From Candidatus Iainarchaeum sp. (lineage in GTDB: Archaea > Iainarchaeota > Iainarchaeia > Iainarchaeales > JAFCCW01), in assembly GCA_017609985.1 (NCBI GenBank), contig JAFCCW010000013.1:36429-100428 (forward strand): a DNA stretch of 64,000 nt, written 5' to 3'. Position 1 is the stretch's first letter. Each line of letters starts with the position of its first letter. The translations under genes were made by a program, and so were the position numbers. Below are positions 10,975 through 57,693 of this stretch, one piece after another. The notes under the pieces are model-generated. The model worked only from the letters and a program-made list of their open reading frames with translations, made no database searches and was not told the DNA's origin.

Positions 10975-11000
10975 AAAAGATTTTTGAAAGAGAAAAAAAG

Positions 11001-11062
11001 CTATTAGCACGCCGTTACGCCCGGCGTGTGCGTAACCTATACTCCTTTCAGTTGTATAGCTT
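11001..11062 (-). ncRNA. Putative structured small RNA, copy 1 (unknown family)
   Basis: AAGCUAUAC-AACUGAAAGGA-GUAUAGGUU-A-CGC-A-CACGCCG-GGCGUAA-CGGCGUG-CUAAUAG then C and U7; aligns with 27272-27332. Confidence 0.65.
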
Positions 11063-11082
11063 TGAGTAAGATAAAAAAAAGC

Positions 11083-11199
11083 GATTAGCAGCTTCTGGTA
11101 GGCTACACGTAAAACGCACTGCCAAGCCAATCCCTACAGGGCTTAACTTCCGGGTTCGGAATGGGACCGGGTGTTTCCCCTGCGGTATGACCGCTAATC
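11083..11199 (-). rRNA. rrf: 5S rRNA, unlinked from 16S/23S
   Basis: GAUUAGCGGUCAUACC...ACACCCGGUCCCAUUCCGAACCCGGAAGUUAAG...CUGCUAAUC; helix I pairs; followed by U8. Confidence 0.93.
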
Positions 11200-27079: not shown

Positions 27080-27256
27080 ATGATGCTGGACATTGGAAAA
27101 TTTCTTTCTGACTCAAAGCGAGTACTCCTTATTGCTCGAAAACCAGGTTGGGATGAATTCAAGACAATGGCAAAAATAACAGGATTGGGAATAATTGTCA
27201 TTGGAGCAATTGGATTCTTTGTGCTTCTTTTCTTCACGCTGATTGGCTTGAAGTAG
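27080..27256 (+). CDS. secE: Protein translocase subunit SecE/Sec61-gamma (58 aa)
   Basis: Hand translation: RVLLIARKPGWDEFKTMAKITGLGIIVIGAIGFF; ftsZ-secE-spt5 synteny. Confidence 0.93.
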   Translation: MMLDIGKFLSDSKRVLLIARKPGWDEFKTMAKITGLGIIVIGAIGFFVLLFFTLIGLK

Positions 27257-27271
27257 TTTTTTTTCAGGAAC

Positions 27272-27332
27272 AGCCCATGCGACTGAAAGGAGTGTGGGCT
27301 ACTTGCCAGCCGAAAGCCACGGCTTAGGATAG
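27272..27332 (+). ncRNA. Putative structured small RNA, copy 2 (unknown family)
   Basis: AGCCCAUGC-GACUGAAAGGA-GUGUGGGCU-A-CUU-G-CCAGCCG-AAAGCCA-CGGCUUA-GGAUAG then U6. Confidence 0.65.
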
Positions 27333-27394
27333 TTTTTTAATGCTTTATGAAGTCAATTAGTTTACTAATTTCTCCTTTTTGGGGCTGAATTAAA

Positions 27395-27838
27395 ATGATT
27401 TTTCCGGTGAGAACAACAGTTGGGCAGGAAAGCCTTGTGGTAGATATAATTAGCAGTAAGATAAAGGCAGAAGGCCTTAACATTTACTCTATTGCTGTTA
27501 TTCCGGGTCTAAGGGGCTATATGCTCATTGAAGCAGACAATGAAATGACTGTAAGACGTGCAATGACTAATACTCCTCACATTAAGGGCAGGGGTGTTGT
27601 TGGCGGAGGCGAGGTTAAAATTTCCGAGCTTGATTCACTGCTTGAAGCAAAGCCTTTGATGAAGAGCATTAAAGAGGGTCAGAAAGTTCAGCTTATAAGC
27701 GGTCCTTTCAAGAACGAGAAAGCAAAGGTGCTGAGAATTAATGCGCCAAAAGAAGAAGTTACTGTTGAACTGCTTGAAGCAGCTGTAAAGATTCCTGTCA
27801 CTATAAAGGCAGAGCATATCAGGATTTTGAAGGAATAG
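27395..27838 (+). CDS. spt5: Transcription elongation factor Spt5/NusG
   Basis: VRTTVGQE, LRGYMLIE, KOW motif ISGPFK, IPVTI. Confidence 0.94.
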   Translation: MIFPVRTTVGQESLVVDIISSKIKAEGLNIYSIAVIPGLRGYMLIEADNEMTVRRAMTNTPHIKGRGVVGGGEVKISELDSLLEAKPLMKSIKEGQKVQLISGPFKNEKAKVLRINAPKEEVTVELLEAAVKIPVTIKAEHIRILKE

Positions 27839-57128: not shown

Positions 57129-57287
57129 TAAACCAACTTTTTTGTGATATTTTTTTTTGCTAACTTTTTTTCCAAATTTTTTTTTGCCGTCTTTTTTTCC
57201 GAAAAAAGGTGCATGCAACTGCTGTGCCTTTTTACAAAAGGCAGCAAAATGTAGGATTGCCCTTTTTCGCTTTGCTCAACAGGGTTA

Positions 57288-57360
57288 TGCGACTGCCGGG
57301 ATTCGAACCCGGACCAGAAGCTTGGGAAGCTCCGGTGCTAGCCATTAACACCACAATCGC
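57288..57360 (-). tRNA. tRNA-Gly(CCC), no intron, CCA not encoded
   Basis: GCGATTG acceptor stem, anticodon arm GGAGC-TTCCCAA-GCTTC, GGTTCGAATCC T-arm, discriminator A. Confidence 0.96.
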
Positions 57361-57693
57361 ATTCATTATTTCTTATGTTGAAATTGTTTTAAACTCTTCT
57401 AAATTTCTATAATCTATGTCCCTGTGTCTGGGAACTTTTCCCTCTTGCTTGTATTTTTTGTATTTGTATATGTGTTTGGATTGTTTGGTTTTATTATTTC
57501 AAAGAAAATAAGGTTTAATTATTTTAATAAATTTTGTAAGAGAGACCGGAGTTCCGGTGAAATCTGCTTTACTATTTTTTCCGGCAAATTATCTTACAGA
57601 AAGTTTTATTGTGATGTTCCATTCTTTTGCTAAATCTTTTTCCAGAATTGCACCACTAACTTAATATAGGCTTTCAAGCCATATAAATGCTCT

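Follow-up and report, generated by a model that had tools for sequence, protein, structure and literature searches.

We analyzed a GC-rich island that lies between secE and spt5 in a 64-kb window of DNA (the window being the whole 64,000-nucleotide stretch) from the archaeon Candidatus Iainarchaeum sp. The genome that contains the window is archaeal, 1.16 Mb in 37 contigs, with a GC content of 38.75%. secE (27080..27256, + strand; Pfam SecE) is upstream of the island and spt5 (27395..27838, + strand; Pfam Spt5-NGN and KOW) is downstream, and the identities of FtsZ, SecE, Spt5 (NGN and KOW) and L11 around it were verified with Pfam. An initial annotation had described the island as the second of two copies of a candidate structured RNA motif that was either processed from read-through transcripts or acted as a 3' element. 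We found that the motif is real and that it belongs to a multi-copy family. Our results indicate that the island is probably (at a rough probability of 0.62) one copy of a new small (~60-150 nt), GC-rich, non-coding and non-autonomous mobile structured repeat of the Iainarchaeales.

The secE/spt5 island (copy 2) is composed of a folded core set between two copies of a short target sequence, all on the + strand. The secE stop codon (TAG, 27254-27256) is followed directly by a T8 tract (27257-27264; stop codon plus T8, 27254..27264), and the left copy of the duplicated target, X1 (TAGTTTTTT, 27254-27262), was found there by a scan for flanking repeats. Next come a 7-nt 5' spacer, CAGGAAC (27265-27271), with no P0 leader hairpin (described below), and a 9-bp hairpin, P1 (27272-27280 paired with 27292-27300; apical part GA / CUGAAAG / GA), which was identified by folding and covariation. 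A second hairpin, S2, has 5 bp (AGCCG 27308-27312 with CGGCU 27320-27324) and a 7-nt loop. A pseudoknot helix (27302..27316) joins CUU at 27302-27304 to AAG at 27314-27316 in the S2 loop; both S2 and this helix are indicated by covariation. The core is followed by a tail, TAGGA, and then by the right target copy, X2 (TAGTTTTTT, that is, TAG plus T6, 27330-27338); tail and X2 together occupy 27325..27338. The T8 tract and 7-nt spacer before the island and the T tract after it, which the initial annotation had pointed out, are indeed there. What they mean is different: the flanking T tracts, and the ending before a second T tract that copies 1 and 2 have in common, are largely due to duplication of the target upon insertion.

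Copy 2 folded on the + strand with an energy of -24.9 kcal/mol (z = -3.71), and none of 200 shuffled sequences folded as well. The reverse complement was no better than shuffles (z = 0.06). By inspection of the sequence, we saw no TATA-like box belonging to copy 2, in agreement with the earlier suggestion that it has no promoter of its own. In a related strain, the element is retained on a single DNA contig that covers 27189-27404. Among the listed differences in that contig, C27280T occurs together with G27292A as a compensatory pair, and C27275T and C27276T each preserve a G.U pair.

Two more copies are in the same genome. Copy 1 has the architecture of copy 2, as had been claimed, and we place it on the - strand (motif extent 11001-11063), 3' of a 5S rRNA gene (11083..11198, - strand; Rfam). 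The insert, consisting of the spacer, P1 (11054-11062 / 11034-11042), the pseudoknot and S2, occupies 11010..11072. Its left target, X1 (TGCTAATCGC plus T8; 11073..11090), comprises the 3'-terminal 8 nt of the 5S rRNA together with its terminator, so that the 3' end of the 5S rRNA gene is the target of this copy. The right target, X2 (TGCTAATAGC plus a T run; 10993..11009), matches X1 at 16 of 17 positions. Copy 1 folded with z = -2.95 on the - strand and -3.07 on the + strand. In a 63-column alignment of copies 1 and 2 the mean column identity was 81%, and P1 differed by compensatory changes. These changes, together with the family-wide covariation described below, bear out the proposal that the two copies reflect selection on structure rather than a recent duplication. 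Copy 3 (C27:26223-26285, - strand) was found with a model built from copies 1 and 2, approximately 20 nt past the stop codon of a thermosome gene. Its flanks (GCCGGGAATGATGTA compared to GCCAGGAATGATGTA) span the last thermosome codons. All three copies in this genome are bounded by direct repeats of the target. The 5S rRNA gene next to copy 1 (11083-11198, - strand) stands alone with its T8 terminator, and together with a tRNA-Gly(CCC) gene (57287-57361, - strand) it makes up the only RNA genes detected by Rfam or ARAGORN in the 64-kb window.

The motif was not matched by any known RNA family that we tested. A scan of the window with Rfam 15 at gathering thresholds returned just the 5S rRNA and one tRNA. 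At E≤10, the only match within 27200-27400 was a 9-nt partial match to SAM-SAH, outside the motif, and at E≤5 no family fell on the motif at any of eight motif loci.

The family is abundant in some genomes and patchy in distribution. We built a first covariance model from copies 1 and 2 and a second from 18 sequences. Of the 151 genomes from the order Iainarchaeales, 39 had the motif with the second model at E≤0.01 and the other 112 did not; under strict filters the matches per genome reached 28. In a phylum-wide sample, 30 of 151 genomes had a match at E≤0.001 and all 30 were Iainarchaeales. None of the 11 genomes from other orders of the phylum in that sample (families f33-f37) had one. Thus, within the genomes searched, the family is confined to the Iainarchaeales, an order of DPANN archaea. 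One genome, G015 (two contigs, 1.25 Mb, 97% complete), contained 63 matches at E≤0.1. G034, G018, G011 and G094 are high-copy genomes as well, whereas families f3, f27, f30 and f31 yielded no match. In another, G016, a single-contig genome, all four matches are on the minus strand in the last 12% of the contig (G016:C1:1074781-1215894), and one of them (L006) has an atypically long S2 hairpin.

The fold is supported by covariation in all three of its helices, P1, the pseudoknot helix and S2. The alignment comprised 66 members (64 distinct rows), and to its structure we added the pseudoknot, which was absent from the search model. Standard base pairs filled 94.1% of the pair cells, compared to 71.5% in shuffled alignments and 26-48% when partners were slid. 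Sixteen of the 18 pairs varied on both sides, and none of 500 shuffles matched the alignment in any of five measures. In the pseudoknot, columns 68-79 contained U-A (30), C-G (16) and G-C (2); columns 67-80 contained G-C (59), A-U (2) and U-A (1); and columns 65-83 contained U-A (17), A-U (7) and G-C (7). The CUU/AAG pairing that had been proposed for the island is therefore supported across the family in a helix that played no part in finding the members; where copy 2 has CUU/AAG, other copies have CGU/ACG or CGC/GCG. G.U pairs outnumbered A.C pairs 22 to 3 in P1 and S2 and 27 to 10 over all 18 pairs, which indicates that it is the given strand that folds, either as RNA or in the form of single-stranded DNA. 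With the third copy, a fold that beats shuffled sequences, covariation, and no Rfam match, the motif that the initial annotation proposed stands as a new structured element.

The conserved core is the P1 hairpin followed by an H-type pseudoknot (a helix of 3-4 bp plus the 5-bp S2 hairpin with its 7-nt loop). In approximately 26 of the 66 copies, P1 is immediately preceded by an additional hairpin, P0, in the form GCGAGC-loop-GCGAGC with tandem G.A pairs or as a fully paired GCGCGC stem; in longer versions the stem is extended through compensatory pairs. P0 is absent from copies 1 and 2, and half of it is retained in copy 3.

We found that the motif is not a conserved component of the secE-spt5 junction. 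It was present in none of the 31 Iainarchaeales relatives whose junctions were compared; the spacers there are 60-130 nt and AT-rich. G015 is the one other genome with the motif in its secE-spt5 spacer, and it has two copies in opposite orientation. These results do not support the proposal of a 3' element, or of a product of read-through, that is linked to secE and spt5. The initial annotation had also held that absence from this junction in relatives, combined with a lack of other copies, would speak against the motif. The junctions do lack it, yet other copies are abundant. In the G015 secE-spt5 spacer (L050:1130-1290), three tandem AT-rich units of ~60 nt (poly-A, GCTTTTTGCGTTTCGC and a T-run) lie between the element and spt5 and resemble duplicated pieces of a promoter or terminator.

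Some copies of the element are flanked by duplicated target DNA. We scanned 75 copies for flanking repeats, allowing mismatches and taking the best shuffled control (8) as the cut-off. Fourteen of the 75 were above the control. Thirteen of these were genuine, including the three in the genome of the window, and one was a paralogous pair of tRNA-Pro genes. The repeats were 9, 15, 15, 17, 19, 19, 19, 21, 23, 30, 31, 56 (a tandem unit) and 79 nt. The 3' end of the element is fixed: in 10 of the 13 cases no nucleotide (0 nt) separated the last S2 pair from the right repeat, and in the other three, copy 2 included, the distance was 5-6 nt. The left boundary was anywhere from 0 to ~90 nt upstream of P1, and the copies had no terminal sequence in common there.

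Filled and empty sites in related genomes show the insertions. At the L22|S3 junction, G110 has the arrangement X-E-X-E-X, in which E is the element and X is a 19-bp target (ATGGAGGCCAAATAATGAT). The same junction has a single X and no E in four genomes (G068, G150, G022 and G116), one of which (G068) belongs to the same genus as G110 and is 88-89% identical to it in the flanks. At the eIF6|L18Ae junction, the start codon of L18Ae is part of a 27-nt target that is present twice in G099, on either side of a 153-nt insert, and once in G062 and G032. Both neighboring genes remained intact after duplication at each of the two junctions. At a further locus (L020, in G094), the spacers of sister genomes were too diverged for an empty site to be read. 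Based on the absence of the motif from the 31 junctions, the flanking repeats, and the filled and empty sites, we infer that the element arrived between secE and spt5 by insertion and is not a conserved element of the junction.

Three other features of the insertions gave no usable signal. Microhomology between the element's last 8-9 nt and the DNA upstream of the repeat was near chance (~27 of 74 positions matched, by eye). Open reading frames of at least 100 aa overlapped 32 of 66 copies, a count dominated by spurious reading frames in GC-rich DNA and tRNA genes, and we rejected it as a measure of intergenic preference. The orientation of the 63 copies in G015, read against cumulative GC skew, was concordant for ~35 and discordant for 26.

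Insertions favor the ends of tRNA genes. In G015, for which 46 tRNA genes are predicted, 16 of the 63 copies were no more than 10 nt from a tRNA gene and 21 were no more than 150 nt from one. Random placement gave a mean of 1.05 such tRNA-adjacent copies and a maximum of 5 in 1000 trials. The initial annotation had suggested a covariance-model search as a way to find favored positions; the search did reveal a preferred class, the tRNA-gene ends of G015, and the secE-spt5 junction (0/31) was not among the favored sites. Of the 16 copies, two are inside introns at the canonical position, antisense to the tRNA. The other 14 abut a tRNA gene, each with the 3' end of the element toward the tRNA (14/14). 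Six of them are directly upstream of the tRNA on the same strand and eight are convergent with it. We read four of the same-strand upstream junctions, from G015 and other genomes: S2 was followed by 1-2 nt, mostly U, and then by tRNA position +1. Copies at this distance from +1 must be co-transcribed as part of the pre-tRNA leader. In six convergent junctions, also from G015 and other genomes, S2 abutted the discriminator, nt 73.

Outside of G015, four copies (L008, L037, L027 and L168) lie downstream of a tRNA gene that is on the same strand, and after each comes a repeat of the tRNA from T54 to approximately nt 73. This repeat was not present at the nine non-tRNA or 5'-leader targets in the flanking-repeat scan. 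At L167, a copy is flanked by an 18-19-nt repeat whose end is position -1 of a tRNA-Trp gene. Joints thus tend to fall at tRNA +1, T54 and nt 73. Many tRNA genes in these genomes (L009, L010, L036, L167 and G015 generally) have long introns at the canonical position, up to 169 nt as determined by ARAGORN. Some of the introns carry a copy of the element, antisense in at least three cases and, in a divergent form, sense in the tRNA-Trp gene of G011. In two genomes (L167:5900-6300 in G011, and L005 in G018) an adjacent pair of tRNA-Pro genes has the element between or beside them, and the flanks are a 66-nt repeat with ~80% identity. It may be that very long target duplications could duplicate a whole tRNA gene.

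In the interpretation that we favor, the element entered the spacer that separates the terminator of secE from the promoter region of spt5, with duplication of the target (TAG plus a T run). Its defined 3' end, at the last pair of the pseudoknot, is joined to the target, and the 5' side is variable or truncated; the duplications are long and variable, ~15-31 bp. The conserved fold would be recognized, as RNA or as single-stranded DNA, by a mobilizing machinery that probably acts in trans. Copies 1 and 2 sit after T8 terminators and would be transcribed only by read-through. The secE|spt5 copy itself would be a passenger with no dedicated role in expression of secE or spt5.

A more specific version of movement is speculative, and we consider it rather unlikely. 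The element might be a copy-and-paste, SINE-like repeat (resembling short interspersed nuclear elements) whose folded 3' end is joined first at the ends of stable RNAs, directed by an RNA end or an R-loop and driven by host enzymes or by a catalytic fold of its own. The joining positions (tRNA +1, tRNA nt 73, T54, the 5S 3' end and terminator U-tracts) and the genomes that have copies without reverse transcriptase, transposase or Cas1 are part of that same tentative proposal. If true, the element would be a source of remodeling of tRNA-gene flanks and possibly of tRNA-gene duplication.

Several observations weigh against a mobile repeat. No flanking repeat was detectable at 61 of the 75 copies scanned. 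In G015, a search for a second copy of the tRNA end beyond the element found none above shuffled controls, save one 16/20 match near tRNA-Arg(tct). The related-strain contig, though a single one, hints in the same direction, as a secE/spt5 copy retained with its pairing would also fit a function in place. Since the leader copies are co-transcribed with their tRNA, a role as RNA is possible for some copies. The candidate partners for mobilization also fail to follow the element. Reverse transcriptase (RVT_1) was found in 19 of the 151 genomes of the order, and only three of the 19 had the motif. The TnpB Zn ribbon was absent or marginal in G015, G034 and G018, Y1_Tnp was absent from G015, G018 and G011 and present in two of five high-copy genomes, and Cas1 was absent from G000, G015, G034 and G011 and found in one of five genomes (G018, beside a reverse transcriptase). 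G000 had no multi-copy open reading frame resembling a transposase.

RVT_1 was not found in G000, G015, G034 or G011, nor in any of the 16 genomes in each of two motif-rich families (0/16 in f20 and 0/16 in f23). It is possible that a reverse transcriptase is supplied by viruses or plasmids that were not binned with these genomes. The TnpB Zn ribbon was above the curated cut-off in G011, and in G094 when summed with neighboring matches. Of the candidates searched for, namely RVT_1, Y1_Tnp, the TnpB Zn ribbon, Cas1 and the multi-copy open reading frames of G000, none follows the distribution of the element; the search did not extend to further families of transposase or integrase. We also looked for a viral origin with a degenerate 22-nt pseudoknot pattern in IMG/VR. 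Two contigs were returned with a partial high-GC match, no P1 and no tRNA nearby, and we attribute these to chance. In G018, the reverse transcriptase is directly upstream of the Cas1 gene (an RT-Cas1 pair; G018:C8:11836-13358).

We considered four other explanations. The element could be an RNA module useful to the host, for processing, stability or as a boundary element of tRNA, 5S rRNA or mRNA, that has been copied around and kept by selection; such a module would be cut out by RNase P or tRNase Z, or would act as a barrier to exonucleases. In its favor, a copy is found no more than 10 nt from 15 of the 46 tRNA genes in G015, its 3' end faces the tRNA in every case, and six copies are directly upstream on the same strand, hence in the pre-tRNA leader. 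The U between S2 and tRNA +1 in four copies read, the structure conserved by covariation, and the related strain that keeps the secE|spt5 copy with its pairing are also consistent with it. Against it, the motif is missing from 112 of the 151 genomes of the order (at E≤0.01) and from all 31 related secE-spt5 junctions, and it is polymorphic within genera, as at L22|S3 and eIF6|L18Ae. Furthermore, a T8 terminator precedes both copy 1 and copy 2, eight copies in G015 run antisense to the adjoining tRNA, and at least three are antisense within tRNA introns. We regard this explanation as unlikely, at least for the family as a whole. A function specific to the secE-spt5-L11 cluster, for example as an spt5 leader or attenuator, is scarcely credible. 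The element is upstream of spt5 here, and copies are in the secE-spt5 spacer of G015 too, but those two copies are oppositely oriented, the 31 related junctions have none, and copy 1 lies after a 5S rRNA gene and copy 3 after a thermosome gene.

The remaining two explanations concern the precise ends of the element. The RNA could be a putative self-cleaving or otherwise catalytic small RNA, in which the fixed 3' end would be an RNA end made by cleavage, by analogy with ribozymes borne on repeats. The compact hairpin and pseudoknot with highly conserved unpaired nucleotides in the consensus, the precise 3' boundary, and the multi-copy, repeat-like spread are what one might expect of such an RNA. 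Against this, no Rfam ribozyme family matched even at E≤5 to 10 and the boundary itself has no conserved nucleotide, and we think it highly unlikely. The copies could also be scars or mini-versions of integrative elements driven by an integrase, with the flanking repeats being attachment (att) sites at tRNA genes. The repeat from T54, in the T-loop, to approximately nt 73 in the four tRNA cases (L008, L037, L027 and L168) speaks for this, as a repeat from the T-loop to the 3' end is the classic identity block of tRNA att sites. In contrast, repeats of 15-31 bp are also present at the ends of unrelated protein-coding genes, with single-copy empty sites in sister genomes, so that a separate attP would be needed for each target. 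Only ~70-150 bp lie between the repeats and no integrase is encoded. There is a slim chance, if that, that this explanation is correct.

A mobile repeat of this kind has partial counterparts among known elements. Archaeal C/D box small RNAs have C (RUGAUGA) and D (CUGA) boxes at their ends and form a k-turn. The C box was absent from the three copies in the genome of the window, and there was no Rfam C/D match. Pyrobaculum calidifontis has C/D-box small RNA elements that resemble MITEs (miniature inverted-repeat transposable elements; PMC6009581). Like MITEs, including these P. calidifontis elements, the Iainarchaeales repeat is small, non-coding, multi-copy, non-autonomous and intergenic in an archaeon, and some such repeats overlap structured small RNAs. 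Unlike the Pyrobaculum elements, it has no C/D boxes. It also differs from MITEs in that there are no terminal inverted repeats at the repeat-defined ends (10 copies, by eye) and the 5' ends differ; the duplicated targets are long, ~15-31 bp, and vary in length, where those of MITEs are short and fixed; and one end is fixed while the other is variable.

The repeat resembles eukaryotic SINEs and retroposed small RNAs in having a folded core like that of a small RNA. It also has a defined 3' end, variable or truncated 5' ends and target duplications of variable length, a feature of SINEs that we tested for and found, and it prefers the neighborhoods of tRNA genes, as SINEs do in some hosts. It is unlike SINEs in lacking an A-rich tail, in having an archaeal host, and in that most genomes carrying it have no reverse transcriptase. 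REP/REPIN sequences (repetitive extragenic palindromes mobilized by RAYT) and derivatives of IS200/IS605 are likewise structured extragenic repeats with strand-specific folding, often at gene ends and sometimes in inverted pairs. These do not duplicate their target and depend on a Y1 (HUH) transposase. In contrast, the element here duplicates its target, Y1 is absent from G015, G018 and G011, and the fold includes a pseudoknot. The T54 to ~nt 73 repeat in four tRNA cases is like that of integrative elements that target tRNA genes, but the element contains no integrase and comparable repeats are found at the ends of protein-coding genes. Casposons, which are archaeal, also have unusually long target duplications and insert at the 3' ends of tRNAs or genes. 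They differ in that Cas1 is absent from G000, G015, G034 and G011, the element has no inverted terminal repeats, and it is ~100 bp and not kilobases. MITEs, SINE-like retroposons, REP sequences and casposons each failed at least one of the defining features that we tested; for tRNA-att elements, the repeat from the T-loop to the 3' end was present in four cases and lacking at nine other targets.

The tiny genomes of DPANN archaea are considered poor in mobile elements, and very few structured non-coding RNAs have been described from them. In the passages returned by full-text literature searches, neither this motif nor an element of its kind was described for Iainarchaeota or for DPANN archaea in general. 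Here, a fold backed by covariation reaches up to ~60 copies in a 1.25-Mb genome, and in that genome, G015, it abuts a third of the tRNA genes. Its insertions fall precisely at the boundaries of genes and come with duplications of unusual length. The family offers a concrete, testable case for the movement of small structured archaeal repeats and a marker of recent genome change in the Iainarchaeales. It should also caution annotators, since the GC-rich islands found where genes meet in these genomes are insertions and not conserved regulators.

A second repeated GC-rich module (GCAGGGG...CCCCTTGCAAACCCC, with further hairpins) adjoins several copies of the element in G015 (L051, L052, L009, L045 and L050). 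Two of these loci, L051 and L052, have a composite unit of 166 nt in common, with 98.8% identity. In addition, two loci (L078 and L089) encode an Spt5 that is 76% identical to that of the window and are deposited as 'Candidatus Falkowbacteria bacterium' and 'Thaumarchaeota archaeon'; these records are probably mis-binned or mislabeled.
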